IMG/VR virus record: IMGVR_UViG_3300044733_004038
Reading direction: 5' to 3' (one strand)
From: an uncultured virus (IMG/VR IMGVR_UViG_3300044733_004038)
Taxonomy: Duplodnaviria > Heunggongvirae > Uroviricota > Caudoviricetes
DNA: 20,000 nucleotides
Position 1 is the stretch's first letter. Each line of letters begins with the position of its first letter. The position numbers and the translations under genes are program-made. Shown one piece after another: positions 1-13,902 of this stretch. A model generated the notes under the pieces. The model was not told the origin of the DNA. It saw only the letters and a program-made list of their open reading frames with translations, and searched no databases.

Positions 1-740
1 GAGTTACCACCAGCACCGCCAGAACTAGTGCCACCGCCGCCACCGCCAGTTGATTTGTAAGTTGCACTGCCTGAAATAAATGCACTGACATCACCGCCAT
101 TACCACCAGTACCGCCAGTAGTGGTACCTGAGGTGCCACCTGCGGCTGAATAACCGCCACCGCCACCGCCAGCCCTTAAGTCTCCATCACGAGAACCAAT
201 GCCGCCATCATTACCTAAATTTGCAAAATTAGCAATACCACCAGCACCACCACGACCACCACCACCACCACCAGAACCACCTGGACCAGCGGCGTTGTCG
301 TTAGAGTGTCCAAAACCACCACCAGAAGCAACAAGTTTTGTGCCGACTGCGGTGAAACTTCCTGCTGTTCCAAAATTTTGACCCACACCACCAGCACCAC
401 CAGCACCGATTGTAATTGTTTGATTTGCGTCTAGATAAAGTGTTGATGTTGTAAAAAGACCTACAAGTTGTCCAGCACCGCCACCGCCACCAGCAACACC
501 ACCACCACTACCACCAGCACCACCGCCACCGCCAGCAACTAAAACGTCAAACAAACCTGCGGTAGTAACCGTCAAAGTTCCTGTGCTTGTAAAAGTTAGA
601 AGCGTGTATGCCTGTGCTGACACAGTAATACTTGACGAAGTTCCGCCTGTCGCAACACCGTAACCCGTTTGAGTGCCGTTTACATAGACGGCACTTGTTG
701 TTGGCTCTGCGCTGACATATCCAAATGTCCTGCGACCCAT
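1..740 (-). CDS. Glycine-rich (polyglycine) putative adhesin G6, runs off the left edge of the window
   Basis: Not in the ORF track. Manual translation from the ATG at 740 gives MGRRTFGYVSAEPTTS...FDVLVAGGGGAGG...ITIGAGG, the same motifs as the other G proteins. It starts 3 bp after the stop of the 744..1115 gene. Confidence 0.85.
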   Translation of the reverse strand, partial: MGRRTFGYVSAEPTTSAVYVNGTQTGYGVATGGTSSSITVSAQAYTLLTFTSTGTLTVTTAGLFDVLVAGGGGGAGGSGGGVAGGGGGAGQLVGLFTTSTLYLDANQTITIGAGGAGGVGQNFGTAGSFTAVGTKLVASGGGFGHSNDNAAGPGGSGGGGGGRGGAGGIANFANLGNDGGIGSRDGDLRAGGGGGGYSAAGGTSGTTTGGTGGNGGDVSAFISGSATYKSTGGGGGGTSSGGAGGN

Positions 741-743
741 AGG

Positions 744-1115
744 TTACGCCGTAATTCTGTTGACGAATCCGTGAATCGTGATGACGTTTGCAGTAGCGGC
801 GAATGCACGAACAACCTTTGCTGAAGCGTTGCCCTGCAACAACAGTCCTGGAATGATAGTTACAAGTCCAGCCTCTGGCTGTACTGTGACCTCAATGTTG
901 CCATCAGGCGCATCAGCCTGACCCCACTCAATCGTCAATTTAACCGACGAAGCAGAGGTATTCACGGCGTACAACCAGATCTCATCGATCGTCGTTGCAG
1001 TAGCCGATGCTGTGTGAATTGCCGTACCAGCTGTGGCAGTAGCAGCAACTTTTATCGCTAACCCTGTGCCCGTAGTGCCGGCTGGCTGTAGACATAATTT
1101 GCTTAGTGTTGCCAT
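744..1115 (-). CDS. Small adaptor-like structural protein, family T (T4)
   Basis: 123 aa. Close paralog of 7563..7925 (EIW.YAVN.SASSVKLTIEWG.A.APDGNIEVTV.PEAGLV...HG.VN.IT). AGGAG RBS upstream. Confidence 0.85.
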   Translation of the reverse strand: MATLSKLCLQPAGTTGTGLAIKVAATATAGTAIHTASATATTIDEIWLYAVNTSASSVKLTIEWGQADAPDGNIEVTVQPEAGLVTIIPGLLLQGNASAKVVRAFAATANVITIHGFVNRITA

Positions 1116-1133
1116 TATCTATCTCCTATTTTG

Positions 1134-1526
1134 TTAAGACCATATTTGCGTTGCGATGAAAACTTGATCATCGAACGCGTCGAAGCCAGTTCCTGATGAT
1201 GCTGCAGTAACTCTACCTTGTGCGTCAACAGTGATGTTGGTCGTCGTGTATGAGCCTGGCGTAACTGCTGTGTTAGCAAGCTTGTCTGCTGTAACCGCGT
1301 CGTCAGCAATCTTTGCAGTTGTAACGTTTAAATCAAGAATCTTAACAGTTGTGACAGCGTCGCTTGCTAATTTAACCGCCGTGACTGACCCATCGTCTGG
1401 CACGCCCGGAGACAGGGCGGATACGCCCATAAGCGTCCATGCGGTGCCGTTGTAAAACCAAGTCTTGCCACTAGACGTGAAAAGATCATTTGTTAACGGT
1501 GAGTTTGGAAAATCAATTGCTGCCAC
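1134..1526 (-). CDS. Short fibre/linker protein, family A (A2)
   Basis: 130 aa, GTG start. N-terminus IDFPNSP...TW.YNG.AW, ~10-aa VTxxK(L/I)A repeats, GSYTT.NITVDAQGR and a C-terminal DDQ motif. Paralog of 11680..12051. Confidence 0.85.
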   Translation of the reverse strand: MAAIDFPNSPLTNDLFTSSGKTWFYNGTAWTLMGVSALSPGVPDDGSVTAVKLASDAVTTVKILDLNVTTAKIADDAVTADKLANTAVTPGSYTTTNITVDAQGRVTAASSGTGFDAFDDQVFIATQIWS

Positions 1527-1639
1527 TGTATCATCCTATCTTTCGATACGCACTATACCCTATGTATATTAACACGAGTATACAGCGGTGATTACGCGAC
1601 CTAGTTGCTTTTTGTTGAAAATTACAACAAATCTAGCGG

Positions 1640-3595
1640 TTATTGCGGTAGTCTACTGCGTAAATACGCGCACTCTAGAGCAAGGGCTTCTTCGTACCGA
1701 ATTCCGTATCTATTTCCGGCAGCCTGGTGTTCTTGCACCATGCCAATTCCGTCCTCAAAGCGCTCTTCCTGCTCTTCCCATTCGTCGTAGCACAGGATGC
1801 CGTAGGCAAACGGATCAACGCCTTCAGCCTCAAATGCTTCTTTAACTCGTTGCGCCACCAACCCAACATGCCACCTCGCGCCGTCTCCTTTTTTCTGAAC
1901 AGCGTCTTTAAACTTGAACTGTTGATACTCGACGTTACTCCAAGCGCGCAGAACTGCCTCGTTGATGTCGCCGATCTGCTCTTTCTCTCTTTCATCCGAT
2001 GTGCTAATTGTTGCAGTGTCGGCGTAAACTACCGTCCACCTACGAGCCGCTCCACCAAGTGAGTATGTTGAATCAGTGCGAGGTCGTAAGACCTGAGTAT
2101 CTGTGTTTGTTGCAAAAAAAGTTACAGTCGCGCTTCCATCAGTTTCAGAACCGCCGGTGACTTGTATTCTTGCATCATAGTCATTGACCGATTCGTTGTT
2201 GCCAGAGGTATGAATATCCATGTACCAGGTTGCTGCAGTGTTTTGCTTTCCAAGTTCCAGTGTGCCATCAGCACGCAAAAGAGCGGAGCGCTCATTGGAA
2301 ATATAAGAATCAAAAACATTTGTTCCACCTGTGTAGTATAAACCAGTATCGGCATTATCAACTCGTAGTCCTACAAAACCAGAACCACGAGCAACAAAGA
2401 AACTTTGGACTTTGTACGTTCCAAGATTTACGGCATCAAAACCCCATGCATAGTGTGAACCACCAGTTGCAGCGGTTGATGCTTCTTTGTTGTCTACAAG
2501 TCCAAGTTCAAAACCAGTCATTGCTGAAGCATGTGAATTCGCGTCCATCAAAACATTTGCGTTATGCGCCCATACTTTTGTGAACGGATTTACATAGGCA
2601 GTTGCTGTTCCCGATGGAGTTGAGGCAGATTGTGCTGTACCGTTGGCGAGATACCAACCTTCAACCGTGATGCTTGAACCATTTGCTGCCCAATCAGTGA
2701 TAAATCCGCTGTACTTTGTTGGGCTGTGAGCAGTATCAATAATCATGCCTTTGCGCAAAAGTCTTCTATTCGCCTCGCTGATTGTTGAAGCAGGGACAAC
2801 AGTTGTTGCTGTATAGGTTGCGCCAGCTAAAGTCAGCGTTGGAGGTGGAGCTAAAACATCGGCAAAGAAAGAAACTGCGTCTCTGTCAGTGTAGATAGAG
2901 ATATCCGCCTCGTTGGTTACACCCAAAACTTCGGCGGCGCTATTAAAGTCCGAGCCACTTGGATAAAGTCTTACCGCAAAACCAGTCGCGCTATCTTCGT
3001 TGCCGTAAGGCGCCGACATGATTCTTTGGCCCTCACGAAGAAGGTCACCGTTAAGATTTTCTGGATTAAGGATTTTTGCGCCACGGTCTGCAACCCAAAC
3101 AACTTCTCGACCGCCAGTATCTATTCGACTAGAAAGCACATAGTTGCCATCTGGAATTGTTACAAATACACAATTTGCTCTCAGGATTCCATTGTCAGTG
3201 TAGGTGACAGCGCCAGTTCGTGCTTGTGCCGCGGCATCAAAAGCGGCAGTGTCATCTGTAACGCCATCGCCAACTGCGCCATAATCTGACACAGAAACTG
3301 GCAGAGAGGTCTTATTGACTTTTGCATTGATTTGAGTTTGAATTGCCGAGGTGACACTGTTCACGTAGCCGAGCTCGGTTGATGACACGTCACCGATAGT
3401 CGTTGTGCTTGGTAATACAACGTTGCCAGTAAAAGTAGGCGAGCTTAGCGGTGCGTAAGAAGCAAGTGAGCCTGCTTCTACATTTGCAGCTGAAGGATTT
3501 ACCTCCCAGGCAGAACCATTCCAAGTCCACGTGCGGGAGCCGGCAGTGTATACTTGGTTGAGAGATGGAGAATTTGGAAAATCAATTGCTGGCAT
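1640..3595 (-). CDS. Tailspike/depolymerase-like protein with C-terminal peptidase S74 intramolecular chaperone
   Basis: 651 aa. Family-A-like N-terminus MPAIDFPNSP. VSVSDYGAVGDGVTDDTAAF is the typical start of a pectate-lyase-like beta-helix. TSDEREK...ARWHVGLVAQ...RYGIRYEE resembles endosialidase-type autocleaving chaperone domains (~1640..2000). Confidence 0.85.
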   Translation of the reverse strand: MPAIDFPNSPSLNQVYTAGSRTWTWNGSAWEVNPSAANVEAGSLASYAPLSSPTFTGNVVLPSTTTIGDVSSTELGYVNSVTSAIQTQINAKVNKTSLPVSVSDYGAVGDGVTDDTAAFDAAAQARTGAVTYTDNGILRANCVFVTIPDGNYVLSSRIDTGGREVVWVADRGAKILNPENLNGDLLREGQRIMSAPYGNEDSATGFAVRLYPSGSDFNSAAEVLGVTNEADISIYTDRDAVSFFADVLAPPPTLTLAGATYTATTVVPASTISEANRRLLRKGMIIDTAHSPTKYSGFITDWAANGSSITVEGWYLANGTAQSASTPSGTATAYVNPFTKVWAHNANVLMDANSHASAMTGFELGLVDNKEASTAATGGSHYAWGFDAVNLGTYKVQSFFVARGSGFVGLRVDNADTGLYYTGGTNVFDSYISNERSALLRADGTLELGKQNTAATWYMDIHTSGNNESVNDYDARIQVTGGSETDGSATVTFFATNTDTQVLRPRTDSTYSLGGAARRWTVVYADTATISTSDEREKEQIGDINEAVLRAWSNVEYQQFKFKDAVQKKGDGARWHVGLVAQRVKEAFEAEGVDPFAYGILCYDEWEEQEERFEDGIGMVQEHQAAGNRYGIRYEEALALECAYLRSRLPQ

Positions 3596-3682
3596 ATCGT
3601 GCTCTTTCTGCCGCTACTGCGACACTACAGTGTATTTTACTACGCTTTAGCCGGTGCAATAATTTTGTTGCTGGTAGCGGTA

Positions 3683-3730
3683 TAAGCCACCTAGTTAATG
3701 TGTGACCCACTCTTGTTCTTCTTCGTTCCA
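3683..3730. repeat. Near-identical H-gene 3' end and downstream box (second copy 9623..9670)
   Basis: taagccacctagttaa and gacccactcttgttcttcttc are shared at offset 5940. Confidence 0.88.
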
Positions 3731-4030
3731 CTCATACGGGTTTTCTGTTGAAGCATCTGATGGCATTGGTGTCGGTGGTTGCCAATCGTGGTTGCTGTCA
3801 AGAGTCCACGAAGGGAACGGTTGTGGTGCTACGAACACATCAGCGTCAGGCAGATATTTGAACCCAACGCCACAGAATTGTTTGCGAATCCTGTTATTAA
3901 AACTTGTCTGAACCCAAGTGCCACCGAATAAATCGTTGCACCACTCAACACCGTTTGATTCATATTCGTTAGCGACCACGATTACTCGTAGCACATTATT
4001 GTTGTTATCTAATTCTGCGAAGTGTGCCAT
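3695..4030 (-). CDS. Family H partner protein (H5, MAHFAEL subtype)
   Basis: Start reassigned to the ATG at 4030 (TGATG overlap with the upstream stop), giving 111 aa. Motifs QTSFN..IRK, PQPFPSW and C-terminal W.EEEQEW. Confidence 0.85.
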   Translation of the reverse strand: MAHFAELDNNNNVLRVIVVANEYESNGVEWCNDLFGGTWVQTSFNNRIRKQFCGVGFKYLPDADVFVAPQPFPSWTLDSNHDWQPPTPMPSDASTENPYEWNEEEQEWVTH

Positions 4031-4920
4031 CAGAAAGTCCACGCAATCGTGCCAGTTGCAAGAAACGTAAATATTTTGTATCCGCCCGTGGTTGTTTGTG
4101 TGCCAACTGTCAATGTGGTTGGGTCTGCGAATGTGTCAAGAGTTCGCATAATAACGATTCCTGAACCGCCAGCACCACCTGCACCTGCGCCTTGACCGTC
4201 ATTACGACCACCGCCACCGCCACCCGTGTTTGCTGTGCCAGCCTGCGGAAGTGTGCTTGCATTTCCACCGTTACCGCCACCACCATTTCCGCCAGAAGCA
4301 ACAGCCCCAGAAGGAGAATTACCACCACCACCGCCACCGTAGTAAACACTTGAACCTGATATCACATTCACTACGCCAACACCACCTGCATTAGTGCCCG
4401 ACCCAAATGTATTTCCACCAGTATTACTTGCACCGCCACCGCCACCGCCGAAACCGCCAGTCGTAGAACCACCCGCACGACCTTGATTGGCTGTGCCTGC
4501 TGAGCCATTCGTATTCAAATTATAACCACCACCACCACTCCCACCAGTAGCAGACGCATTAGTGCCACCACCACGACCACCACCAGTTGAAGTAATAGTT
4601 GTCAAAGCCGTGCCAGCAACAGAACTATCTGTGCCAGATGTGTTTGACGCACCACCAGCACCAACCGTCGCTGTGTAAACAGTTCCGCTAACTGGTGTGA
4701 ACGCTGTTTCTAAAGTCGTAGCATCACCGCTTACCGCAACAGTGCTTCTTACGCCACCAGCACCACCACCGCCACCGTTAAAAGTTGCGTTGTTGCAGTT
4801 TCCCCCACCACCACCGCCAGCGACAACAAGATAATCAACAACAACAGGGACAGCACTTACAGTTTGCACAACTACAGGGTAAGCCGAAACATATCCAAGC
4901 GGTCTGCGTGAATTAGTCAT
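4030..4920 (-). CDS. Glycine-rich putative adhesin G5
   Basis: 296 aa. DYLVVAGGGGG, GGGGAGG.R, YGGGGGG, GTANTGGGGGG and GGSGIVI motifs. Confidence 0.88.
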   Translation of the reverse strand: MTNSRRPLGYVSAYPVVVQTVSAVPVVVDYLVVAGGGGGGNCNNATFNGGGGGAGGVRSTVAVSGDATTLETAFTPVSGTVYTATVGAGGASNTSGTDSSVAGTALTTITSTGGGRGGGTNASATGGSGGGGYNLNTNGSAGTANQGRAGGSTTGGFGGGGGGASNTGGNTFGSGTNAGGVGVVNVISGSSVYYGGGGGGNSPSGAVASGGNGGGGNGGNASTLPQAGTANTGGGGGGRNDGQGAGAGGAGGSGIVIMRTLDTFADPTTLTVGTQTTTGGYKIFTFLATGTIAWTF

Positions 4921-4943
4921 CGTCTAGCCCAGTAACGCTTGTG
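4871..4943. repeat. 73-bp exact direct repeat (second copy 6728..6800), junction box 2
   Basis: actacagggtaagccgaaac...ctagcccagtaacgcttgtg is identical at offset 1857. It spans QALLG*, a 3-bp spacer and most of the shared G4/G5 N-terminal codons. Confidence 0.95.
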
Positions 4944-5172
4944 GGCGAGTCGGAAAAACAATCAACTTAGGGTCAGCGTTTTGTGATGGCAAGTCTCGTA
5001 GTTCTTCACGGTATTCTTGCCACGCTGTTTTGTCGGCTGTGCAATCTGCTATCTGTGTCCAGTCCGATGCTTGTAGTTCACGGTTACGCCAGTTTCTAAA
5101 CCGTTCAAAATACCATTCGTTAGGTATTTCGTTTGCGTTTTCGTGTGGTGCAACAAAATCTAGGTAGTTCAT
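4924..5172 (-). CDS. Phage tail (fibre) assembly chaperone-like protein
   Basis: 82 aa. RNRELQASDWTQIAD...AWQEYREELRDLP...FPTRP matches the pattern I recognise for the Phage_tail_APC family. TAATG-coupled to the upstream gene. Confidence 0.8.
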   Translation of the reverse strand: MNYLDFVAPHENANEIPNEWYFERFRNWRNRELQASDWTQIADCTADKTAWQEYREELRDLPSQNADPKLIVFPTRPQALLG

Positions 5173-5618
5173 TATGCAGCCTCATAAACAAAATTAAAGT
5201 TAATGATATCGGTTGTTGCAAATGTAAACGGTTGAGTAGCACCGACATTGGCGTGAAACAAAAAATTTCCCGTTACTTGTGGCAACTTAAATAGAACTGT
5301 TGTAGTTGAATCTAAATATCCTGCGCCAAGATATTGGTCGGTTGTGCTTGTATCAACATAACTTATGTTGTTTGTGTAAAAATTGTTTCCTAATTTTGCT
5401 GTAACTGGCAAACTTATTTTAGGACCGCTTCCCATAGTTGTTGTGCTTCCGAAAGTTAATTGACCGTAAACATGAACCAAAAAACCAATCTGTGCATAAC
5501 GAAAATTGTTTGTGCCATTACCAAGAGTTATGTTTGTGTAAGAAGGCGTGTAGGCAACATAAGCAGTTACATTGTTGCTCGGAACTGCTTGAACAATTTG
5601 GCTAGAAGTATAAGCCAT
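5172..5618 (-). CDS. Beta-rich tail tip protein, family Y (Y2)
   Basis: 148 aa. First 13 aa (MAYTSSQIVQAVP) are identical to 6972..7559. The body (YTPS..NITLGNGT...RYAQIG...ISLPV...FVYEAA) resembles phage fibre tip domains. Confidence 0.75.
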   Translation of the reverse strand: MAYTSSQIVQAVPSNNVTAYVAYTPSYTNITLGNGTNNFRYAQIGFLVHVYGQLTFGSTTTMGSGPKISLPVTAKLGNNFYTNNISYVDTSTTDQYLGAGYLDSTTTVLFKLPQVTGNFLFHANVGATQPFTFATTDIINFNFVYEAA

Positions 5619-5620
5619 AG
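5581..5620. repeat. 40-bp exact direct repeat (second copy 7522..7561), junction box 1
   Basis: ggaactgcttgaacaatttggctagaagtataagccatag is identical at offset 1941 and encodes the Y N-terminus. Confidence 0.95.
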
Positions 5621-5896
5621 TTAAACCTCACTCTCGATAACAGGTGCGATGAACTCGTCAAGGTCAGCGTCATAGGTGTATCCGATACCTGCGTATCTGC
5701 CACGAATGTTCCCGTTGTATGAAGTGCGTTTGCACAACAAACCTTGATGCTGTGGTTGGTTTTGATAGAACTGTTCCCACGCTTCTGAAGAACCGCCGAC
5801 TTCAACATCACCGTCTAGTTGTGTAACTGTTTCATCAACGCCGACAATAACTTTGACAACTTTGTTTCCGTATCCAATAAATGCGTAATGTGCCAT
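5621..5896 (-). CDS. Family H partner protein (H4, MAHYAF subtype, short form)
   Basis: Start reassigned to the ATG at 5896 (TAATG overlap), giving 91 aa. Has CKRTSYN...R.RYAGIGYTYD but lacks the C-terminal PQP.PSW...W segment of the other H proteins. Confidence 0.82.
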   Translation of the reverse strand: MAHYAFIGYGNKVVKVIVGVDETVTQLDGDVEVGGSSEAWEQFYQNQPQHQGLLCKRTSYNGNIRGRYAGIGYTYDADLDEFIAPVIESEV

Positions 5897-6777
5897 TACA
5901 AAGCCCAACTCACATTACCCGAGCCAGCAGTAATCGTAGCCCGTTTGTAGCCACCCGAAGCAGCCGACTCTGTGCCTGTTAAACCTGCGCCGATAGTGAT
6001 TGTATAAGTATCTGCGTAACGCAAAATGACTACGCCACTACCACCGTTGCCACCGTTATAGCCAACAAAAGTATTATTGCCACCGCCACCGCCGCCACCG
6101 CCAGTATTGGCTGTGCCTGCTGAACCATTTGCACTTCTTCCACCATTACCGCCACCGTTTGAACCTGTGCCTTCATTGCTTTGATTTTGTGAGTTACCAC
6201 CGCCACCGCCACCAGCGTAAGTAACACTTGTGCCAGTAATGCTTACAGCCTGACCTGCACCGCCATTTGCGTTTGTTGCTGCTGCACCCGCACCACCACC
6301 ACCACCAGTAAGACCTGATGGGTGAGTGCCACCATTCGCACCATTATTTCCTTGAACAGGGCTGGCAGTTCTTGTGCCAGCATTAGCACCTGTGCCACCG
6401 CCAGCAGATGAACCACCATTACCGCCAGCCGTTTGTGGTCCACCACCAGTTCCGCCACCAGTTGAAGTTATGGAATCAAAAATACTACTTCCACCTTGTG
6501 TTCCATTATTGCTTGTGCTGCCAGTACCTCCACTGCCTACCTGTATTGAATAATTTGTATTTAACGCACACAACAATGCGGTTTCAAGCGAACCACCACC
6601 ACCTGTTGCTGTAACTGAACTGCGTAAACCGCCAGCACCAGCACCAGACCCTTGATTGTTACCGCCACCGCCACCGCCTGCGACAACAAGAAAATCAACG
6701 GTAATTGGATTAGTAATATTTGCTACGACTACAGGGTAAGCCGAAACATATCCAAGCGGTCTGCGTGAATTAGTCAT
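5896..6777 (-). CDS. Glycine-rich putative adhesin G4
   Basis: 293 aa. G-family motifs. First 18 aa identical to G5. Ends ITAGSGNVSWAL. Confidence 0.88.
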   Translation of the reverse strand: MTNSRRPLGYVSAYPVVVANITNPITVDFLVVAGGGGGGNNQGSGAGAGGLRSSVTATGGGGSLETALLCALNTNYSIQVGSGGTGSTSNNGTQGGSSIFDSITSTGGGTGGGPQTAGGNGGSSAGGGTGANAGTRTASPVQGNNGANGGTHPSGLTGGGGGAGAAATNANGGAGQAVSITGTSVTYAGGGGGGNSQNQSNEGTGSNGGGNGGRSANGSAGTANTGGGGGGGGNNTFVGYNGGNGGSGVVILRYADTYTITIGAGLTGTESAASGGYKRATITAGSGNVSWAL

Positions 6778-6780
6778 CGT

Positions 6781-6975
6781 CTAGCCCAGTAACGCTTGTG
6801 CTTCGTCTGCTGTCAAACCAAGTTTATCCAACACCGCTTGACGGGCAGCCTGCTTCAATGCGAGAGCATCAGCCTTTGCTTGCGCTTGCGCTGCGTCTGC
6901 TGCAACTTGTGCTGGGTCTGCTGGTTCTAAAAATACTGGGCAAACGCTGTTGTCTGGTGTTATGTCAGTTTTCAT
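6781..6975 (-). CDS. Small helical protein partnered with Y1 (possible chaperone)
   Basis: 64 aa. ATGA overlap with the upstream gene. Ends ARQAVLDKLGLTADEAQALLG. Occupies the same slot as the 82-aa chaperone in the neighbouring unit. Confidence 0.7.
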   Translation of the reverse strand: MKTDITPDNSVCPVFLEPADPAQVAADAAQAQAKADALALKQAARQAVLDKLGLTADEAQALLG

Positions 6976-7559
6976 TTTGTGTACCCATAAACGCTCAATG
7001 TTCCTGTTACTGCTGCGCTAATTAAAAATTGTATGCCGTCATAACTTGTGCTTGCTTTGTTGTAGTGCGCTTCGGTGTATGGAATTGCGTTTGTGCCATT
7101 CGTAGAGGTTTGTAAAGCGATACCTAAAATTGTTGTTGGTTCTGCAACGAACGGCTTAATGACATCGGCTGTGAACGACATTTGGTCGGTAGCACCTGCT
7201 CTGTAATCAAATGATGTTGCTGCCGCTATATTTTGTGCATAAACCGTGCCTGCAACTGCGTAAATTTGATTACTGAAATAATCGCTTGCTGAACTTACCG
7301 AACCGCCAACACTCAAACGACCTGTCAAATTGTATTGACTACCAGACGCATTCCAAATAAATTTGTAGTTAGTGTATGTTGAACTAAAAACGCCGTTTAA
7401 CAAAATGCTTGTCGTAACTGATGTCATTGTTACTTGACCGTTTGCCGATGCTGTAGCCGTGCCACCGCCAACCGTAATTGAAGTAGGGACAATCGCTACG
7501 AACGCAGAGTTGATACCTGTTGGAACTGCTTGAACAATTTGGCTAGAAGTATAAGCCAT
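6972..7559 (-). CDS. Beta-rich tail tip protein, family Y (Y1)
   Basis: 195 aa. Shared 13-aa N-terminus. The body (LNGVFSSTYTNYK...SYDGIQF...TGTLSVYGY) is not alignable by eye with Y2. Confidence 0.78.
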   Translation of the reverse strand: MAYTSSQIVQAVPTGINSAFVAIVPTSITVGGGTATASANGQVTMTSVTTSILLNGVFSSTYTNYKFIWNASGSQYNLTGRLSVGGSVSSASDYFSNQIYAVAGTVYAQNIAAATSFDYRAGATDQMSFTADVIKPFVAEPTTILGIALQTSTNGTNAIPYTEAHYNKASTSYDGIQFLISAAVTGTLSVYGYTK

Positions 7560-7562
7560 AGA

Positions 7563-7925
7563 CTAAACCGTAATCTGATTCACATACCCGTGAAGACAAA
7601 TAACATTCGCCGTACCAGCAAAAGCCTTAACAACCAACGGAGTCGCATTACCCTTCAACAACAAACCAGGAATTACTGAAACCAAACCAGCCTCAGGCAA
7701 CACAGTTACCTCAATGTTGCCATCAGGTGCAGTTGCTTCGCCCCACTCAATCGTCAACTTAACTGACGATGCTGAACTGTTCACCGCATAAATCCAAACC
7801 TCATCAAGAGTAGTAGTCGTAGTCGAACCAGTATGAATTGTTGTACCAGCAGTAGCAGTAGCAGCAACCTTAATTGCTTTGCCGTCTGTGCTACCTGAAA
7901 GAATCTTTTTAGTGAATGTTGCCAT
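7563..7925 (-). CDS. Family T adaptor (T3)
   Basis: 120 aa, MATFTKKILSGSTDG. Paralog of 744..1115 and 9213..9560. AGAGG upstream. Confidence 0.85.
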   Translation of the reverse strand: MATFTKKILSGSTDGKAIKVAATATAGTTIHTGSTTTTTLDEVWIYAVNSSASSVKLTIEWGEATAPDGNIEVTVLPEAGLVSVIPGLLLKGNATPLVVKAFAGTANVICLHGYVNQITV

Positions 7926-8015
7926 GTGCTGCCTCTAATCTATAGTGCTATTGCTATAATATACTACGCTACACGACCCAACCCTGATCAGCCACCTAGT
8001 TAAATTGCGACCCAC
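7915..8015. repeat. ~100-bp near-identical junction (second copy ~9550..9650): H end, 74-bp spacer, T start
   Basis: Direct comparison shows two substitutions and two compensating 5-bp indels within the spacer. Confidence 0.92.
7957..7970 (-). promoter_or_regulatory. Putative internal promoter motif CGT-N2-TAnnnT (also 9592..9605, 3631..3646, 1563..1576)
   Basis: The minus strand reads AGCGTAGTATATTA (twice), AGCGTAGTAAAATACA and CGTGTTAATATACA. Each lies in an intergenic gap 32-38 bp upstream of a start codon. Confidence 0.5.
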
Positions 8016-8017
8016 AT

Positions 8018-8395
8018 CTACGGCTCGTCAATTTCTATCCACACTTGGTTTGGTTCAAACCACGCATAGTTGCCTTCAGGTCTTGGGGTTGGCGGTTGCC
8101 AATTGTGGTTCTCATCTAAAGTCCATGAAGGATATGGTTGTGGTGTTATGAACACATCGTTGATGAAGTCGTATGTGTCACCAATGCCTGCGTAACGTTT
8201 ACGAAAGTTTGAGTTGTAAGAAGTTCGCTTGCAGGTAAGCCCCAAATTCCACGATTGATTTTCGTAGTATTGTTCCCACGCTTCAGTAGAACCACCGACT
8301 TCGATATCGCCGTCTAGTTGCGTAACTGTTTCATCAACGCCCGTAAGTACCTTGACAACAACATTATTTTCGTTAAGAAATGCGTAATGCGCCAT
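8018..8395 (-). CDS. Family H partner protein (H3, MAHYAF subtype)
   Basis: Start reassigned to the ATG at 8395 (TAATG overlap), giving 125 aa. Shares GVDETVTQLDGD.EVGGS.EAWEQ with H4. Confidence 0.85.
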   Translation of the reverse strand: MAHYAFLNENNVVVKVLTGVDETVTQLDGDIEVGGSTEAWEQYYENQSWNLGLTCKRTSYNSNFRKRYAGIGDTYDFINDVFITPQPYPSWTLDENHNWQPPTPRPEGNYAWFEPNQVWIEIDEP

Positions 8396-9210
8396 TATGC
8401 CCAACTCACATTCCCGCTACCAGCGGTAATTGAAACTATTGTATTTGCGCCGCTGGTTGTTGATGATGATGTCAAACCCGCACCAACAGTGATTGTGCCT
8501 GACGCTGTTGGATATCGCAAAATAACTATCCCACTACCACCGTTGGTTCCAGTACCACCACCACCGCCACCTGTGTTTGCTGAACCACCAGTGCTAGACG
8601 ACCCACCACCACCAGTTCCACCAGGAGCATTATTGTCTCCTGCACCACCACCACCACGAGTAACTGCCGAACCAGTTATAGAACTAGATAAACCATCTCC
8701 ACCGTGACCGTCACCGTCTGTGTTACCTGCTTCGCCAGCACCGCCACCACCCGAAAATGTCCCAGAGCCACCCACAAATCCCTGAACAGGCGTTGCCCGT
8801 GCTGCTGCTGCACCAGTATATGCACCACCAGATGAACCACCGCTTAAACTTGGGCAACCAGCACCGCCAGTACCGCCGCCGCCCGTAGAAATTACTGTAG
8901 AAAAAACACTATCGGTTCCGCTACGACTTGTAGTACCATTAAGTACGCCACCAGCACCAACAGAAACAATATAATTTGTATTTTTAAAAACCGACAATGG
9001 TGTTTCTGCAGCACCACCACCACCTGTAGTTTCTCCGCTTGTGCTATTGCGATAACCACCAGCACCACCACCGCCACCATAAGAAACTGCGCCCGAACCG
9101 CCACCAGCAATAACTAAGTATTCTACGGTAAGACTTGGGGTAGTAGCAGCCTGACCCCAATTGCCTAGAGTCGGTTGTTGAGTTAGTGTTCTAGGAGAAT
9201 ATCTAGACAT
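8395..9210 (-). CDS. Glycine-rich putative adhesin G3
   Basis: 271 aa. EYLVIAGGG, GGGGAGGYR and GGSGIVILRY motifs. Ends ITAGSGNVSWA. Confidence 0.88.
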   Translation of the reverse strand: MSRYSPRTLTQQPTLGNWGQAATTPSLTVEYLVIAGGGSGAVSYGGGGGAGGYRNSTSGETTGGGGAAETPLSVFKNTNYIVSVGAGGVLNGTTSRSGTDSVFSTVISTGGGGTGGAGCPSLSGGSSGGAYTGAAAARATPVQGFVGGSGTFSGGGGAGEAGNTDGDGHGGDGLSSSITGSAVTRGGGGAGDNNAPGGTGGGGSSSTGGSANTGGGGGGTGTNGGSGIVILRYPTASGTITVGAGLTSSSTTSGANTIVSITAGSGNVSWA

Positions 9211-9212
9211 TA

Positions 9213-9560
9213 TTAAGCAATTCTATTTACAAAACCAAAGATTTCTATTTTATTAGCCGTACCAGCAAACGCTGTCACGTTGACAGAACCAGTCAAGATT
9301 AGACCGGCACAAACAAGAACAAGACCCGAAGGTGTCGCTGCAATCGACTGCTGAATCAAATCCGAAGTCACAGTTGCACCACCAAGTTCAACAGTTAAAG
9401 TAACCGCCGAAGAATGAATATTTGCCGCGTACAACCACAACTCGTCCAACGCGGTTGCGTGAGCAGCATGAATTGTTGTGCCAAGAGTTGCTGTTGCAGC
9501 AACGGCAATACCTCGACCGTTCGTGCTACCTGAAAGTTTTACCTTTGTAAATGTTGCCAT
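9213..9560 (-). CDS. Family T adaptor (T2)
   Basis: 115 aa, MATFTKVKLSGSTNG...LDELWLYAAN...GFVNRIA. Confidence 0.85.
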   Translation of the reverse strand: MATFTKVKLSGSTNGRGIAVAATATLGTTIHAAHATALDELWLYAANIHSSAVTLTVELGGATVTSDLIQQSIAATPSGLVLVCAGLILTGSVNVTAFAGTANKIEIFGFVNRIA

Positions 9561-9634
9561 GTGCTGCCTCTAATCTATAGTGCTATTGCCATAATATACT
9601 ACGCTACGCTACACGACCCTGATAAGCCACCTAG

Positions 9635-10000
9635 TTAAATTGCGACCCACTCTTGTTCTTCTTCACTCCACGAATACATTCCTTCGCCTGCTGGGTAAGC
9701 AACAGGTGCTTCCCAAACGCAAGTGTCTTCATCAAGAATCCACGATGGATATGGTTGTGGGGCGTAGAAAGCGTCTAGTGTCGCGTCATACTTATAGCCA
9801 ATGCCCGCATAGTTTTTACGATATGGGGTGCCACCATTGTTGTGCTGACCACCATAAGTGTTGTACGAGGTGCGCTTGCAAGGCTGACCTCGGAACTCCC
9901 CATACCATTGTTCCCAATCGATACCGTCTTCACCTTCGTTTTTACCGACGATGACTTCTGTAACGATATTTTCGTTATCTAGAAATGCGTAATGTGCCAT
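9635..10000 (-). CDS. Family H partner protein (H2, MAHYAF subtype)
   Basis: 121 aa. CKRTSYN, NYAGIGY and PQPYPSW motifs. AAGGA RBS upstream. Confidence 0.87.
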   Translation of the reverse strand: MAHYAFLDNENIVTEVIVGKNEGEDGIDWEQWYGEFRGQPCKRTSYNTYGGQHNNGGTPYRKNYAGIGYKYDATLDAFYAPQPYPSWILDEDTCVWEAPVAYPAGEGMYSWSEEEQEWVAI

Positions 10001-10074
10001 GTTTATATTTATCCTTGCTAAGTTTACATTACTTATTGCTATTATTCAAATTAGTATTTATTATACGTAATAAA

Positions 10075-10554
10075 TTATTCTTTTTCTATTTGAGGGAAAA
10101 TGCCATACGACAGTGTAATTCTAGGGTCAATCCCAATAGCCATATGCTTAGTACCTTTTGGTATTATCAATAAATCAGAAGGTTCTAGAATATATTCTTC
10201 TGTGTTATTTATTTTATATAGAACTTTTCCATGCAATCCTAAAAGTAAAACATCGGTTATGTCATCATGCACTGGACTTTTAATTCCGGAAACTAATGAA
10301 GAAAAAATACATAAATTAGATTCCGTATTATGCATATTGAATTCATTTTCTAATTTACTATAAATATCTATAAAATCATTATCTAAATGAACATCTTTTA
10401 TTTGAAAAATACTTTCAAATATAAAATCGTTTAAATAGTTGCTTGAAATTCTAGACAAAAAATGGTTTCTGTTTAATAATCCAGACAAATTATTAAAATC
10501 ATATTCACCAAAAGATAAATACTTTTTTATATATTGTGTTTTAATTAAACTCAT
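10075..10554 (-). CDS. JmjC/cupin-fold 2OG-Fe(II) oxygenase-like protein, AT-rich
   Basis: 159 aa. PVHDDITDVLLLGLHGKVLYKI...LEPSDLLIIPKGTKHMA supplies an H-x-D...H metal triad as in cupin_4/ROX-like JmjC proteins. ATGA overlap with the G2 stop. Confidence 0.8.
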   Translation of the reverse strand: MSLIKTQYIKKYLSFGEYDFNNLSGLLNRNHFLSRISSNYLNDFIFESIFQIKDVHLDNDFIDIYSKLENEFNMHNTESNLCIFSSLVSGIKSPVHDDITDVLLLGLHGKVLYKINNTEEYILEPSDLLIIPKGTKHMAIGIDPRITLSYGIFPQIEKE

Positions 10555-11462
10555 GCTGTCACTGTTCCCGTACCTGCGGTAAATCTATAGATTTTATAAC
10601 CACCTGTATCTGTCAAAGTATATGTCAAACCAGCACTGACAGTTAAATTAGGGGATGTATTCAAATACCTGACTATTACAACACCAGACCCCCCAGCCGA
10701 ACCAGCCTCGCTACCACCAAGAGAACCACCACCGCCACCACCGCCAAGATTTACTGTCCCAGCCGTAGAGGCTCCATTTGTACCTTGCCCCGTTCCGCCA
10801 CCTCCGCTGCCACCAGAACCACCAGAAACCGCTCCGCCATCGTATGTATTTCCTCCACCTCCACCACCGCCTGCATATGTAACAGCAGAGCCGCTATATG
10901 AATTGGATGTACCACCGCCTCCATTTCTTCCGCTACCGCCAGAAGACGCGCCACCGCCGCCGCCGCCAGTCCATTCCTGCGTAGCACCACCTGTGCCATT
11001 TGCCCCGTTGGTTCCTTCAGCTGGTGAGAAACCGCCTTGGTTGCCAGTACCGCCGCCCTGTGGGCTATATCCACCACCACCGCCACCCGAACCGCCGTCT
11101 TGACCTCTTTGTGCTTGACCGCCACCGTAACCGCCGCCAGTTGAGGTTATTGTGCTAAATACAGAATTTGAACCTTTAGTGTTAATACCTCCACCTGCGC
11201 CAACTGTCACTGTAGTGTTTGCACCAGCAATTAAACTTACAGCCCCTGCTGCTGTGCGAAATCCACCAGCACCACCACCACCACCATCTCGGTTTCCACC
11301 TCCACCGCCGCCTGCAACAACAAGATAGTCAACACTAATAGGCTGACCAGACCAACTGCCTGCACCTCGTTTTCTTTGAACATCACCAAGAGTCCAGATA
11401 CCAGACGCAGCAGAAGCACTTACCGTTTTTTCTGCTCCAATAATTCCACCATTAGCGCGCAT
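10551..11462 (-). CDS. Glycine-rich putative adhesin G2
   Basis: Start reassigned to the ATG at 11462 (MRANGGIIGAEK, matching G1 MGSNGGIIGAKK), giving 303 aa. G-family motifs. Confidence 0.87.
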   Translation of the reverse strand: MRANGGIIGAEKTVSASAASGIWTLGDVQRKRGAGSWSGQPISVDYLVVAGGGGGGNRDGGGGGAGGFRTAAGAVSLIAGANTTVTVGAGGGINTKGSNSVFSTITSTGGGYGGGQAQRGQDGGSGGGGGGYSPQGGGTGNQGGFSPAEGTNGANGTGGATQEWTGGGGGGASSGGSGRNGGGGTSNSYSGSAVTYAGGGGGGGNTYDGGAVSGGSGGSGGGGTGQGTNGASTAGTVNLGGGGGGGSLGGSEAGSAGGSGVVIVRYLNTSPNLTVSAGLTYTLTDTGGYKIYRFTAGTGTVTA

Positions 11463-11664
11463 TATGCCCAACTCACATTTCCTGAACCAGCGGTAATTGA
11501 AACTATTGTATTTGCGCCGCTAGTTGTTGATGATGATGTCACACCAGCACCAACGCGGTTGCGTGAGCAGCATGAATTGTTGTGCCAAGAGTTGCTGTTG
11601 CAGCAACGGCAATACCTCGACCGTTCGTGCTACCTGAAAGAATCGTCTTAGTAAATGTTGCCAT
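11462..11664 (-). pseudogene. Collapsed T::G fusion relic (5' end of a T2-like gene joined to the 3' end of a G3-like gene)
   Basis: 11550..11640 is identical to 9446..9536. 11462..11554 is near-identical to 8395..8487. The junction is CCAAC. The T frame gives 41 aa and then stops at TGA 11539..11541. Confidence 0.9.
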
Positions 11665-11679
11665 GTGCTGCCTTCAGTC

Positions 11680-12051
11680 TTAGCCGAAAACTTGACTACT
11701 TAAGATGTTTTGATCGTCGTCTGCGCTAAAGCTAGTGCCAGAAGACGCTGATGTCAAGCGACCTTGTGCATCTACTGTGATGTTCGCTGTTGTATATGAG
11801 CCGGCTGCCACCGCTGTGTTTGCAAGCTTTGCGGCCGTTACATTTGCATCAAGAATCTTGGCAGTTGTGACAGCGTCGCTTGCGAGCTTATCGGCGGTAA
11901 CCGCGCCGTTCTGCAGCTCAGTAGTTGAGATCGTCGCAACTCCAAGAGTAGCGGCCTGTAGTGACCAGATACTTCCGTCCCATGTCCACGTGCGAGTACC
12001 TTCTGTTACCGTGTCGCCCGGGGTTGGGGTTGATGGAAAATTTAGTGCCAT
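11680..12051 (-). CDS. Short fibre/linker protein, family A (A1)
   Basis: 123 aa, MALNFPSTP...TWTWDGSIW...GSYTTANITVDAQGR...DDDQNILSSQVFG. AGATAGGAT upstream, as for A2. Confidence 0.87.
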   Translation of the reverse strand: MALNFPSTPTPGDTVTEGTRTWTWDGSIWSLQAATLGVATISTTELQNGAVTADKLASDAVTTAKILDANVTAAKLANTAVAAGSYTTANITVDAQGRLTSASSGTSFSADDDQNILSSQVFG

Positions 12052-12103
12052 GTTAGTATCCTATCTAGTCTAGGCTTGTGTGACGCTGAAAACAAAATTG
12101 CCA

Positions 12104-12460
12104 TTAATCTTCGATCCAAGATTGTGACGGCTCATCCCAGTAGTAAAATTTATTGTCATCAGGATACGGAACAGGTGAGACCCATTCAGTAGTTTCTTCA
12201 TCAAGAGACCATGACGGAAAAGGTTTTGGAGCAATGTATGCATCTAGTGATGAATTATACGTATAGCCGATTCCAGCGTAGCGAGCACGAATATTGTTGT
12301 TGTATGATGTTTGCTTCCATGTCCCGCCAAGATGATTACGGCAGAATTCAGCACCTACAGCTTCTGATTCATTACCATTTTCATCTTTACAATCATTATC
12401 GTGCACGACAATAACTCGTAATACGATATTATCTTCTCCTAGTTCTGCAAAATGTGCCAT
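12104..12460 (-). CDS. Family H partner protein (H1, MAHFAEL subtype)
   Basis: 118 aa. VLRVIVV, GGTWKQTSYN, RYAGIGY and PKPFPSW motifs. AGGA RBS upstream. Confidence 0.87.
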   Translation of the reverse strand: MAHFAELGEDNIVLRVIVVHDNDCKDENGNESEAVGAEFCRNHLGGTWKQTSYNNNIRARYAGIGYTYNSSLDAYIAPKPFPSWSLDEETTEWVSPVPYPDDNKFYYWDEPSQSWIED

Positions 12461-12526
12461 TATTTATTTTCCTATGTGTTAGTTATGTCTTGCGCGATAC
12501 AAAAAGTTTATTAACTTATCTATTAC

Positions 12527-13495
12527 TTAGAATGTTATACTCCCCGTAGCCGTAAAAGTATATACTCTGTATCCTGTTGGATTTGTTACGGTTGGAGATC
12601 CTGTTGTTGCTGTTGCTAATGGCAAACTATCTGGATAGCGAATAATTACTACACCGCTACCACCGTTACCACCGAATGTGCCTGTGTTATAACCTGGGTC
12701 AGTGTTTGTCTTACCGCCACCTCCACCGCCAAGATTTGCTGTGCCTGCCGTACCCGATGAAGGAACTCCAGCACCGCCTGCTCCACCACCACCTGAACCA
12801 CCAGAGCCTGGAGTGTTTTGTGAGTCACCAGGTCTAAATCCTCCACCACCGCCACCGCCACGAGTTACCGAAGTGCCTGTAATGCTTGATGCTGAACCTG
12901 CACCACCATTACCGCAAACATTACCGCTAACATTGCCACCAATAGCGCCAGCGCCACCTCCACCACCACAACCACGACCTCCACTGGACCCGCCATTAAA
13001 GCCTTGAACAGGTGAAGCCGTGCGAGTTCCGCCACCAAATGAACCCTCACCTACACCGCCGCCACCTGAACCACCAGCGCGACCAGCAGAAGCGTTACCA
13101 GCACCACCACCGCCACCAGTGGCAGTAATTGATGCCAGAACAGAGTCGTTACCATCGCCACCAGCGCCTGGGTTATTAACTGATGTTCCTCCAGCGCCAA
13201 CTGTGACTGTATGCGCAGTGCCTTTTGCAAGTGTTAATTGCGTTTCTAAAGTGCCACCGCCACCGGTTGCTGTAACTGTGCTACGCAAACCGCCAGCACC
13301 ACCGCCACCGCCGCCATAAGTATTGTTGCTACCAGCGCCTCCGCCAGCAAGAACTAGATAATCAATTGTTATGTCTGTACTAGGCCAATTGCTTGCGCCT
13401 TTTTCTCTCTGCGCATCGCGAACAGCCCAAATACCAGACGCAGCGCCAGCGCTTATTGTCTTTTTTGCGCCAATGATTCCGCCGTTAGAGCCCAT
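12527..13495 (-). CDS. Glycine-rich putative adhesin G1
   Basis: 322 aa. G-family motifs. N-terminal ~38 aa similar to G2. Confidence 0.88.
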   Translation of the reverse strand: MGSNGGIIGAKKTISAGAASGIWAVRDAQREKGASNWPSTDITIDYLVLAGGGAGSNNTYGGGGGGAGGLRSTVTATGGGGTLETQLTLAKGTAHTVTVGAGGTSVNNPGAGGDGNDSVLASITATGGGGGAGNASAGRAGGSGGGGVGEGSFGGGTRTASPVQGFNGGSSGGRGCGGGGGAGAIGGNVSGNVCGNGGAGSASSITGTSVTRGGGGGGGFRPGDSQNTPGSGGSGGGGAGGAGVPSSGTAGTANLGGGGGGKTNTDPGYNTGTFGGNGGSGVVIIRYPDSLPLATATTGSPTVTNPTGYRVYTFTATGSITF

Positions 13496-13549
13496 TTACG
13501 TCCAACTTACGTTTTCGCTGCCAGCAAATGAAGATAGAAACTGTGCCAT
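13496..13549 (-). pseudogene. 17-codon minigene MAQFLSSFAGSENVSWT, probable collapsed G gene
   Basis: Its ATG overlaps the upstream TGA (TGATG) and its TAA abuts the G1 ATG. AGSENVSWT resembles the G3/G4 ending AGSGNVSWA. Confidence 0.7.
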
Positions 13550-13902
13550 CAGCTAATCTCCTCGTAAGAGCACACCGCCTCAAGGTCAGAGTTTGCTGAC
13601 GCTGTGAGTCGCAAAGTGTCTCCTTCTTCAAGGTAGATTGACTTAGAAATAATATCTAAAGTTGCATCTGCTGGAACCGAAACTGTTTTAGCAACATGAT
13701 AAGCAGTAGAAGAACGGAATATGTCTACGTTCACATCTGCCGCACTTGTCCCGTCAACATTTGATACATAGAGAGCATTTACTTTAAAAACTTTTCCTGA
13801 CGAACCACTGTTTGTAACGATTGCTGTTGCAGAAGTCGTTACAGCAAGAACTGCTGTTTTGCCTGTGATTGTTGCTACGTTTACTATGTTTGGTGCTGCC
13901 AT
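13549..13902 (-). CDS. Small beta-rich adaptor-like protein (S1; same slot as family T)
   Basis: 117 aa, MAAPNIVNVATITGKT...KSIYLEEGDTLR...SYEEIS. AAGGA RBS. Lies between a fibre gene and a G gene. Confidence 0.85.
   Translation of the reverse strand: MAAPNIVNVATITGKTAVLAVTTSATAIVTNSGSSGKVFKVNALYVSNVDGTSAADVNVDIFRSSTAYHVAKTVSVPADATLDIISKSIYLEEGDTLRLTASANSDLEAVCSYEEIS

Follow-up and report, generated by a model that had tools for sequence, protein, structure and literature searches.

A multiplied cassette of predicted glycine-lattice tip genes in the putative host-recognition region of a lake-water tailed phage

The stretch analysed here (the window) comprises 20,000 nt of the uncultured Caudoviricetes virus IMGVR_UViG_3300044733_004038, with 100% of its coding capacity on the minus strand, and carries a repeatedly used cassette in which a glycine-rich protein, termed G, is followed by a small partner gene, termed H. 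Together with an overlapping record that continues beyond the first base, the array holds ten G genes, interspersed with two tip-like proteins of another type (Y), a tailspike, small adaptor-like proteins (T and S), short fibre stalks (A) and two collagen-repeat fibres. The interpretation that we favour, and that we hold to be somewhat better than evenly supported, is that of an expanded array of receptor-binding tip cassettes, which would form the host-recognition region of a lake-water tailed phage, probably an actinophage.

In the order of transcription, the window begins with the collagen fibre A, cut by the edge, and continues with fibre B, S1, a 17-codon relic, G1 and H1; A1, a relic joining a T start to a G end (T::G), G2, a JmjC/cupin gene and H2; T2, G3 and H3; T3, Y1, a 64-residue protein, G4 and H4; Y2, a Tfa-type chaperone, G5 and H5; and, up to the other edge, the tailspike, A2, T4 and an incomplete G6. 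A first-pass annotation made from the letters alone had proposed this gene list and order, and all of these genes were found in the same places on the minus strand, to which the window coordinates given below refer.

The glycine-rich tip protein

The six polyglycine proteins that the first-pass annotation had recognised all pass the gathering cut-off of the Pfam family PF21722 Gly_rich_2 (24.3 bits), scoring between 35.2 and 83.5 bits: G1 (12527..13495; 56.4 bits), G2 (10551..11462; 42.3 bits), G3 (8395..9210; 35.2 bits), G4 (5896..6777; 69.6 bits), G5 (4030..4920; 83.5 bits) and G6 (3..740; 37.7 bits), the latter cut by the window edge. Glycine makes up 33-35% of G1, G2 and G6 and 29-30% of G3-G5, and PF21722 is present in all of the best 120 of 2,462 G homologues. 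A scaffold of glycine runs with variable stretches in between had likewise been anticipated, and it is borne out by an alignment of 72 sequences, in which the 88 glycine positions of G5 have a mean column conservation of 0.79, against 0.47 at the 208 other positions, and the insertions are located between the glycine runs.

The fold was predicted from the same alignment with AlphaFold2 for G5, giving a mean predicted local distance difference test (pLDDT) of 92.7 and a predicted template modelling score of 0.88. The model contains few regular secondary-structure elements, as polyglycine-II segments would give, and it has the architecture of gp24, the fibre protein of cyanophage Pam3, namely a TNF-like beta-sandwich continuing into a lattice of glycine motifs. 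Compared with 48,161 representative chains of the PDB, it exceeds a Z score of 5 with only two structures: the Pam3 fibre (7ypx_A; Z 12.3, root-mean-square deviation (rmsd) 2.8 over 163 residues with 31% identity, chain residues 94-280) and the tail tip of mycobacteriophage Bxb1 (9d93_Qa and Qb; Z 12.2-12.6 over 165-168 residues with 28-30% identity). Lower scores were obtained with the other known polyglycine-II proteins, namely the glycine-rich domain (GRD) of ALK (4.4-4.6), Obg (3.5), a springtail antifreeze protein (3.1) and gp38 of Salmonella phage S16 (2.9). The polyglycine-II lattice expected for G is thus confidently predicted, and its strong matches are solely phage tail-fibre and tail-tip proteins; the likeness to the gp38 adhesin that had been put forward has to be replaced, since S16 gp38 matches over 74 residues alone and the nearest solved structures are those of Pam3 gp24/gp25 and the Bxb1 chain. 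The gp38 family of Pfam has no match among the window proteins at E ≤0.01, and a profile search of the PDB sequences with the G alignment gave nothing relevant. On the basis of the model, G can be described, with moderate confidence, as a predicted receptor-binding tip of about 300 residues, nearly all of which would be taken up by the TNF-like sandwich and the polyglycine lattice.

Two body types can be told apart. Type I has a 'Y.I.TFTA.GT' strand after a ...GGSGVVILRY segment at the C-terminus, while type II (G6, G7 and G9) has a similar strand, 'YTLLTFTS.G', before the first glycine run and ends in ...VRFKV.

The partner gene

Each of the five complete G genes of the window is followed by an H paralog, as had been noted, although in the case of G2 the JmjC/cupin gene is inserted between the two. 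All five belong to phrog_7759, which PHROGs lists as of unknown function: H1 (12104..12460; E 4.3e-45), H2 (9635..10000), H3 (8018..8395), whose ATG overlaps the G3 stop by 1 nt, H4 (5621..5896), a short form of 91 residues, and H5 (3695..4030), whose ATG overlaps the G5 stop. The family, for which Pfam has no entry, is very widespread: at 90% identity it comprises at least 8,000 clusters (all of the 8,000 candidates scored passed) and at 50% identity 3,615 clusters with E ≤0.001, 1,182 of them with E ≤1e-10. By tblastn, H was found in 39 phage records, including phages of Pelagibacter, Roseobacter, Methylophilales and cyanobacteria and a Pontimonas phage, whereas a Pfam scan of 88 members returned scattered matches only, with E ≥0.018.

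The association with G is almost invariable. In a set of 81 loci, consisting of Melnitz, CRP-207 and 79 further loci from IMG/VR for which H2 alone served as the seed, a Gly_rich_2 open reading frame (ORF) precedes H on the same strand in 80, and the exception begins inside H. Among 148 non-redundant G-H pairs, the gap is at most 5 nt in 89 and 6-30 nt in 39, that is, within 30 nt in 128, and in the extended array eight of the ten pairs lie within 22 nt; in five of them the H start codon shares 1 nt with the G stop, and in a sixth the overlap is 4 nt. Moreover, the form of H follows the body of G: a short H accompanies the G protein in 24 of the 27 type II pairs and a long H in 100 of the 121 type I pairs, counts that are uncorrected for kinship between pairs.

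The AlphaFold2 model of H2 (pLDDT 97) has one short helix (residues 29-37) and a beta C-terminus. Its best match among the same PDB chains is the fibre-binding N-terminal domain of the Pam3 chaperone gp25 (7ypx_a; Z 4.4, rmsd 2.9 over 55 residues, H residues 1-81), and the third is the fibre chaperone Tfa of Mu (5yvq_B; Z 2.5). The short H proteins (74-92 residues: H4, H6, H8 and H9) retain just this N-terminal, gp25-matching domain. H has neither a match to the Tfa family of Pfam nor a helical trimerisation domain; a profile search of the PDB sequences with the H alignment gave nothing relevant, and a Foldseek search of H against BFVD returned 11 matches at E ≤0.001, all of them uncharacterised viral proteins, with a 'tail assembly chaperone' appearing only at E 0.077. 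Because gp25 ranks at the top of the structural matches, H occupies behind G the position that gp25 has behind gp24, and the short forms keep precisely the gp25-matching domain, the most likely role of H is that of a chaperone dedicated to its cognate G, or of a partner in the assembly of G, which we assign with moderate confidence.

Extension of the array and support for its assembly

The record G001 (20,712 bp) is 100% identical to positions 1-6561 of the window (6,561 bp) and continues past base 1, completing G6 (294 residues) and adding H6-G7-H7-G8-H8-G9-H9-G10-H10. The extended array therefore contains ten G genes with eleven glycine-rich domains, and every G gene has its H gene. In the repertoire of at least nine tips (six G, two Y and one tailspike) that had been proposed, the count of G has to be raised from six to ten. 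The G paralogs are 37-62% identical, or 16-46% once the columns in which both residues are glycine are removed, and the H paralogs 19-77%; at this divergence, they are old or separately derived. G7 (566 residues; L008 6963-8663) contains two glycine-rich domains, both complete, fused in tandem. A block GGFRSTVTATGGGGSLE...VSVGAGGA that the other paralogs have near the N-terminus is found near the C-terminus of G10 (L009 1317-2210), which looks like an internal rearrangement or a circular permutation.

Between 83 and 98% of the sampled words of the stretch 3501-13500 are contained in 24 lake-water metagenome runs (2020-2024), six of which may be the source of the window and none of which is listed as an RNA dataset. 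In four other runs, contig pieces without a single difference cover window positions 910-3697, 3669-4896, 5044-5608, 5693-6757, 6781-7551, 8425-9475, 9578-11515 and 11611-14524. These pieces span most gene junctions, but they end at repeated junction sequences, so that the long-range order depends on three short-read assemblies: the window, G001 and a further record, L010. The three agree in order over 6.5-12.8 kb at 99.97-100% identity, bar one indel. No match to the whole window was found by megablast among 50,697 phage records, and tblastn searches of phage records with G5 and with T3 were equally negative, although in the case of G the low-complexity filter probably masks the protein.

Adaptors, address motifs and cassette order

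The small proteins that precede G fall into two types. T2 (9213..9560), T3 (7563..7925; E 2.4e-62) and T4 (744..1115; E 4.3e-60) all belong to phrog_30535, listed by PHROGs as of unknown function, and S1 (13549..13902; 117 residues), of phrog_1276, represents the type that precedes G in S-G-H cassettes. The short stalks A1 (11680..12051) and A2 (1134..1526), recognised through PHROG tail fibre families and by alignment, share an N-terminal motif with the tailspike. The proteins Y1 (6972..7559) and Y2 (5172..5618) have identical first 13 residues and received no Pfam name; Y1 is followed by the 64-residue protein (6781..6975), which ends in ...QALLG like the Tfa-type chaperone and is probably the chaperone of Y1.

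The fixed gene order that the first-pass annotation had read from the window recurs in about 160 other phage loci. T has relatives in at least 568 IMG/VR stretches, and 79 loci seeded with T (L010 apart) show T followed by G-H and often by a second G-H, or the order T-Y-small chaperone-G-H. These loci have at most two G ORFs, counts that are lower bounds, as many of the loci are short or cut, and at most three H genes per locus were seen in the approximately 160 other loci examined. The canonical order in the relatives is A-like, T, G, H, (G, H): in the three relatives with 10 kb of upstream DNA, an A-like structural protein of 146-167 residues lies directly before T and behind tape-measure-like or large tail genes. 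A second common unit, S-G-H, was found in nine loci and in Melnitz, where an S-like ORF stands directly before G.

The N-terminus of G varies with the gene upstream of it. A motif xGYVS is present in 37 of the 53 G proteins encoded behind T (another nine have RxRVST), in 24 of the 28 that follow an H as the second G of a unit and in all seven behind the small chaperone, as opposed to none of the nine behind S, six of which carry GGIIG/SGVW instead, and none of the 48 that lack all of these neighbours. Within the window, G1 (NGGIIG...SGIW) and G2 have the S-type address. The element conserved best across 34 aligned G proteins, glycine excepted, is RRxLGYVS. Furthermore, the Y proteins, with a GYVSSQ-like N-terminus in Y1, start with MAYTSSQIVQAVP, which is near the ...GYVSSQSSQVVP start of some G proteins even though Y and G are unrelated. 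Fusions are also found in other metagenomes: in P0391, P0394 and P0395, a T domain is joined through an RxRVSTY-type address to a different, repeat-rich tip with a 'GVAGY' motif, and in P0393, P0397 and P0398, two T domains stand behind an N-terminal extension, one of these extensions being heptad-like and shaft-like. Neither the tip domain of the fusions nor the tandems received a Pfam name. Since the motifs co-vary with the upstream gene and both T-T and T-tip fusions occur, we infer a three-part design in which a tip (G or Y) bearing an N-terminal address is mounted on a stalk (A) by way of an adaptor (T or S). The shared adaptors of the first-pass annotation gain indirect support from the upstream-dependent motifs and the shaft-T-T and T-tip fusions. 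T matched no known branching-domain family, and an ESM Atlas search with T3 returned unnamed viral clusters only, with no structure.

Junction repeats, relics and turnover of modules

Apart from those in the collagen part of fibre B, the longest stretches repeated exactly within the array are all situated at gene junctions or in two relics. Repeats of 91 and 36 nt connect the T::G relic with T2 and with the end of G3, respectively. One of 73 nt is common to the end of the small chaperone with the start of G4 and to the end of the Tfa chaperone with the start of G5; others join the H7/G8 and H9/G10 junctions (46 nt), the H4/Y2 and H8/G9 junctions (45 nt), the T3/Y1 and H4/Y2 junctions (40 nt) and the sequences upstream of T2 and of T3 (40 nt). 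The two relics had both been spotted before. Relic 1 (13496..13549) is, by its translation, a 17-codon ORF with a G-type C-terminus (...AGSENVSWT), while in relic 2 (about 11462..11664) a T gene breaks off after 38 codons and is continued, in another frame, by the 29 C-terminal codons of a G3-like gene. Judged from their sequence, they are deletion scars, that of relic 2 having been left by a T-G module.

The set of modules varies between related genomes. The sequence of L010 follows window positions 10383-7522 at 100% identity and then resumes, at 99.97% identity, from window position 5627 into G001; because of this jump, L010 lacks Y1-small chaperone-G4-H4, the two flanks meeting in a 48-nt overlap, a repeat at the Y starts, and other relatives carry one or two G genes. 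In addition, contig depth, a coarse measure, falls over G4-H4 (5693-6757) and Y2 (5044-5608) to roughly half that of the adjoining pieces in each of the four runs (36.7 against 66-81; 13.9 against 21-26; 43 and 29.8 against 51-68; 8.8 against 14.5-19). These values are a hint that a further common form, devoid of G4-H4-Y2-chaperone, co-exists with the others; such a form would arise by recombination between G4 and G5, whose starts are identical (their first 18 residues coincide). At the tail of the array, G7 and G9 carry a PNRRE address and G8 and G10 an AARLM address, and this part looks like two extra copies of the relatives' two-G unit, without T.

The spacer after the long H genes contains an exactly conserved segment of 26-30 nt (...GTGGGTCGCAATTTAACTAGGTGGCT), observed at window positions 9560-9640, 7925-8030 and 3595-3700 and, in G001, after H10. 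This spacer and the 40-nt block could be transcription signals or recombination sites. An inversion or a diversity-generating mechanism was rejected, as the genes are all on one strand and no invertase or reverse transcriptase family was found in the 25 main ORFs scanned.

Host and cultured relatives

Past H10, G001 encodes a glycosyltransferase, an S-adenosylmethionine-type methyltransferase, a WhiB-like regulator, a DNA methyltransferase and a dUTPase-like gene. The WhiB-like gene (L009 4933-5466 of G001) is encoded on the other strand, downstream of the array and past the glycosyltransferase and the methyltransferase, and WhiB is regarded as an actinophage marker (PMC10202952). Given this gene, the lake origin and the Bxb1 match, the host probably belongs to the freshwater Actinobacteria, to which a cultured relative also points. 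This relative is OX376640.1 'LanE43-AprE7' (39,112 bp), that is, phage E7 of 'Ca. Planktophila', for which whiB is reported along with a hypervariable island of 5 kb that contains tail-fibre, DUF2541 and 'collagen-like' genes (PMC10202952). In our scan, its locus (L169 5429-8755) comprises one S-like gene, a pair of Gly_rich_2 genes, three genes of the Y-like kind, a small chaperone and an H that is 45% identical to H2, so that a small version of the tip system exists in culture; the 'collagen-like' and DUF2541 genes would correspond to G and Y. An N-terminal motif unlike xGYVS (…SLKTG..S.S.LLVGN / …SIKNKIKSGTLLAGN) is common to both G proteins of E7 and the first of its Y-like proteins, which could be a second case of differently folded tips with a common address.

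Other genes of the window

The two fibres encoded ahead of the cassettes are fibre A (16521..20000; more than 1159 residues; Pfam Collagen E 6.9e-93 and PHROG tail fibre families), with collagen repeats, and fibre B (13912..16521; 869 residues), which combines an Mtd_N N-terminus (44.3 bits) with collagen repeats (Collagen E 9.1e-32). Between its Gly-X-Y runs, fibre A has three copies of a non-collagen knob motif of about 60 residues (...W.DVG), besides further globular inserts. The tailspike (1640..3595) joins the A-type N-terminus to a pectate-lyase-like body (PF12708, 33 bits, cut-off 27) and an S74 intramolecular chaperone (PF13884, 56.8 bits, cut-off 22), and the Tfa-type tail-fibre assembly chaperone behind Y2 (4924..5172) matches PF16778 Phage_tail_APC (60.2 bits, cut-off 26.6).

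The JmjC/cupin-like gene between G2 and H2 (10075..10554; PF08007, 23.9 bits, cut-off 22) overlaps the G2 stop by 4 nt. It is apparently a recent insertion, because the G+C content of its region (0.374 in the bin 10001-11000) is much lower than elsewhere (0.42-0.58), and its product could be a candidate modifier of the tips or of the collagen fibres. A gene for a 2OG-Fe(II) oxygenase is located under or beside the H match of phage DSL-LC04.

Interpretation and alternative explanations

In the interpretation as an array of tip cassettes, H would be made in step with G and its N-terminal beta-sandwich would fold or assemble the tip, as gp25 does for gp24, while the first 10-20 residues of G would act as an address peptide docking onto T or S, itself borne by the stalk A; the unrelated Y tips would use a similar address. 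From the state seen in the relatives, a single stalk-adaptor unit followed by one G-H pair or two, the locus would have grown to ten G, two Y whose chaperones are of the Tfa type, one tailspike and a pair of collagen fibres, accumulating modules by recombination at the nucleotide-conserved junctions, through which they would still be gained and lost. Most tips would be made together late in infection, given that the genes are intact, co-directional and closely spaced, and virions bearing many different tips could thereby cope with a microdiverse host. The large array probably lets the phage recognise many host variants.

Several observations weigh against this interpretation. The G5 model contains no helix before residue 241, about 25 residues of low pLDDT (56-65) precede its first strand and the N-termini of the other G proteins are likewise short; G thus lacks the helical docking domain of gp24, and we infer its mounting entirely. 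As for H, the Z score of 4.4 with gp25 is below the 7-8 that is typical of the best score of models without a clear match, the C-terminal helical trimerisation domain of gp25 is missing and the C-terminus differs, being rich in beta structure. T belongs to no known family, and the profile comparison of S with T gave a non-significant probability of 6.5%. The co-variation of the address with the upstream gene, as well as that of G type with H form, may come in part from shared cassette ancestry. No convincing promoter was found in the conserved spacers by a consensus scan (29 sites against 18.9 +/- 4.7 expected), nor any convincing terminator there (11 terminator-like sites against 12.4 expected). 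Finally, the presence of ten cassettes on a single molecule is deduced from the assembled order, and the half depth at G4-H4 and Y2 means that the window may be one of several co-existing forms.

One alternative keeps the tips as such but limits the sockets: all tips would be made, paralogs with the same address would compete and each virion would carry a random subset, as a form of bet-hedging. The three intact T, one S and two short A genes (plus the A-type tailspike) do contrast with ten G and two Y, addresses are shared (the motif of G7 equals that of G9, that of G8 equals that of G10 and G4 and G5 start alike) and the relatives manage with one T and one or two G; a branched arrangement could nonetheless accommodate every tip, and we regard this alternative as unlikely, if worth keeping in mind. 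A stronger version of it, in which at least a dozen structurally unrelated tips (the ten G, the two Y and others that relatives have fused to T) with addresses of 10-15 residues would compete for a few T (perhaps S) sockets and the particles of this abundant lake actinophage would show random subsets, seems rather unlikely to us. If it were true, the conserved junctions would be standard connectors that move cassettes between phages, and H would be a very large family of dedicated chaperones for glycine-lattice tips. Alternatively, neighbouring G proteins in the first and second positions might be obligatory parts of one hetero-oligomeric tip, so that few compound structures would be formed. 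Many relatives are indeed arranged as T-G-H-G-H, their first G tending to a PNRRELGYVS- or ARRQLGYVS-type address and their second to an AARLMGYVS- or TRSYLGYVS-type address, a pairing that G7-H7-G8-H8 and G9-H9-G10-H10 repeat. However, many relatives have a single G, G1-G5 stand alone behind different upstream genes and Pam3 gp24 is described as homotrimeric (PMC9608196), all of which makes a composite tip quite improbable.

The two remaining explanations concern the nature of G and the reality of the array. G might be a 'brush' element of the virion or tail tip that touches the envelope or lipids in a non-specific manner, or aids penetration, with specificity residing in the tailspike, Y and the collagen fibres, and in favour of this the Bxb1 tail-tip chain matches G5 as well as the Pam3 fibre does. 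Ten divergent paralogs that vary between their glycine runs are nevertheless better explained by specific recognition under diversifying pressure, and the two-G island of E7 is reported to be hypervariable in recruitment plots (PMC10202952), provided that our matching of its genes is right; a non-specific role is thus very unlikely. The least credible possibility is an assembly artefact, in which strain variants of a locus with one or two cassettes would have been chained through the junction repeats, as a de Bruijn graph could become cyclic at repeats of 40-91 nt and the contig pieces, built with k=31, break precisely at the repeats, with G4-H4 and Y2 at about half depth. Against it, three separately filed records agree in all but one clean indel, most modules have similar depth in each of the four runs, the repeats are shorter than ordinary reads and the modules are too divergent, and their flanking genes too different, for alleles of one locus.

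Significance

Part of what the array of tip cassettes displays is familiar from earlier work, namely the fold, a solved pair of tip and chaperone in Pam3, the brush domains of actinophage tail tips, recombination at conserved junctions of fibre genes and phages with multiple receptor-binding proteins (RBPs). What is new is a free-standing tip whose dedicated partner belongs to a very widespread family that has no name, as well as the tenfold multiplication of the cassette in one genome, as opposed to the few H genes of each other locus; the address motifs and the junction repeats, in turn, suggest connector rules. The first-pass annotation knew of no characterised system with this layout, a statement that needs amending, given that single or double G-H cassettes are widespread and Pam3 gp24-gp25 has been solved. 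An array of glycine-lattice tip genes of this size was not found described in the literature searched, subscription journals lying outside the search, and PF21722 is not named in any paper of that literature.

Glycine-lattice tips are an under-studied class of receptor-binding domains with few solved examples, and the assignment of H as their chaperone would annotate thousands of genes of aquatic phages. The multiplied cassette is a candidate answer to the question of how phages track the microdiverse, streamlined freshwater Actinobacteria, and the addresses, repeats, relics and indel variant offer simple, testable rules for the mounting and exchange of tips. The cultured 'Ca. Planktophila' phages E7 and F5 open these ideas to bench work.

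Comparison with known systems

The closest solved system is that of Pam3. Its fibre protein gp24 (PDB 7YPX, 7YFW) folds as a TNF-like sandwich into a four-layer lattice of 12 glycine-rich motifs, whose less conserved distal ends are proposed as the receptor-binding site; it forms homotrimers, with an N-terminal alpha-helical domain that makes a trimeric shaft and docks to the baseplate, and the chaperone gp25, encoded beside it, binds it in a 3:3 complex (PMC9608196). G5 superposes on the receptor-binding part of gp24, and H, directly downstream of G, has an N-terminal domain nearest to that of gp25. Unlike gp24, G has no helical shaft or docking domain; in place of the helical trimerisation domain of gp25, H often ends in a proline/tryptophan-rich beta C-terminus; and a single fibre gene there contrasts with ten tip genes here.

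In mycobacteriophages, polyglycine-rich 'brush' domains are described as parts of tail-hub structures (PMC13243795, citing Cambillau and Goulet 2023, Freeman et al. 2025). The Bxb1 brush (PDB 9D93 Qa/Qb) is matched by G5 as well as the Pam3 fibre is, and its actinobacterial host fits the WhiB gene found here; in the present array, in contrast, the domain is free-standing, has its own helper gene and is multiplied tenfold.

The gp38 adhesin of T-even phages is monomeric and depends on general chaperones. Like G, gp38 (PDB 6F45 in the case of Salmonella phage S16) is a free-standing adhesin that sits on a fibre tip, but the structural match is weak (6f45_D), and both the size of the lattice, described for S16 as three-layered and made of glycine-rich motifs (PMC9608196), and the flanking domain, a TNF-like sandwich in G, are different.

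As regards docking, the Klebsiella phages KP32, K11 and KP34 are described as having secondary RBPs whose N-terminal docking peptide binds a domain of the primary RBP (PMC13352976), and phiKp24 as having a hyperbranched RBP system (PMC9700779). By analogy, several RBPs per phage and a docking-peptide logic of this kind may apply to the xGYVS address and T; the Klebsiella proteins, as described, are depolymerase tailspikes, whereas the tips considered here would be glycine lattices with dedicated putative chaperones. The hypervariable island known from the cultured phages E7 and F5 is, in E7, that of a freshwater actinophage with WhiB and reads S-like, G, G, three Y-like, small chaperone and H. 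It differs in having two G and one H in a 39-kb genome, against the ten G-H pairs of the present array, and in the motif that its tips share.

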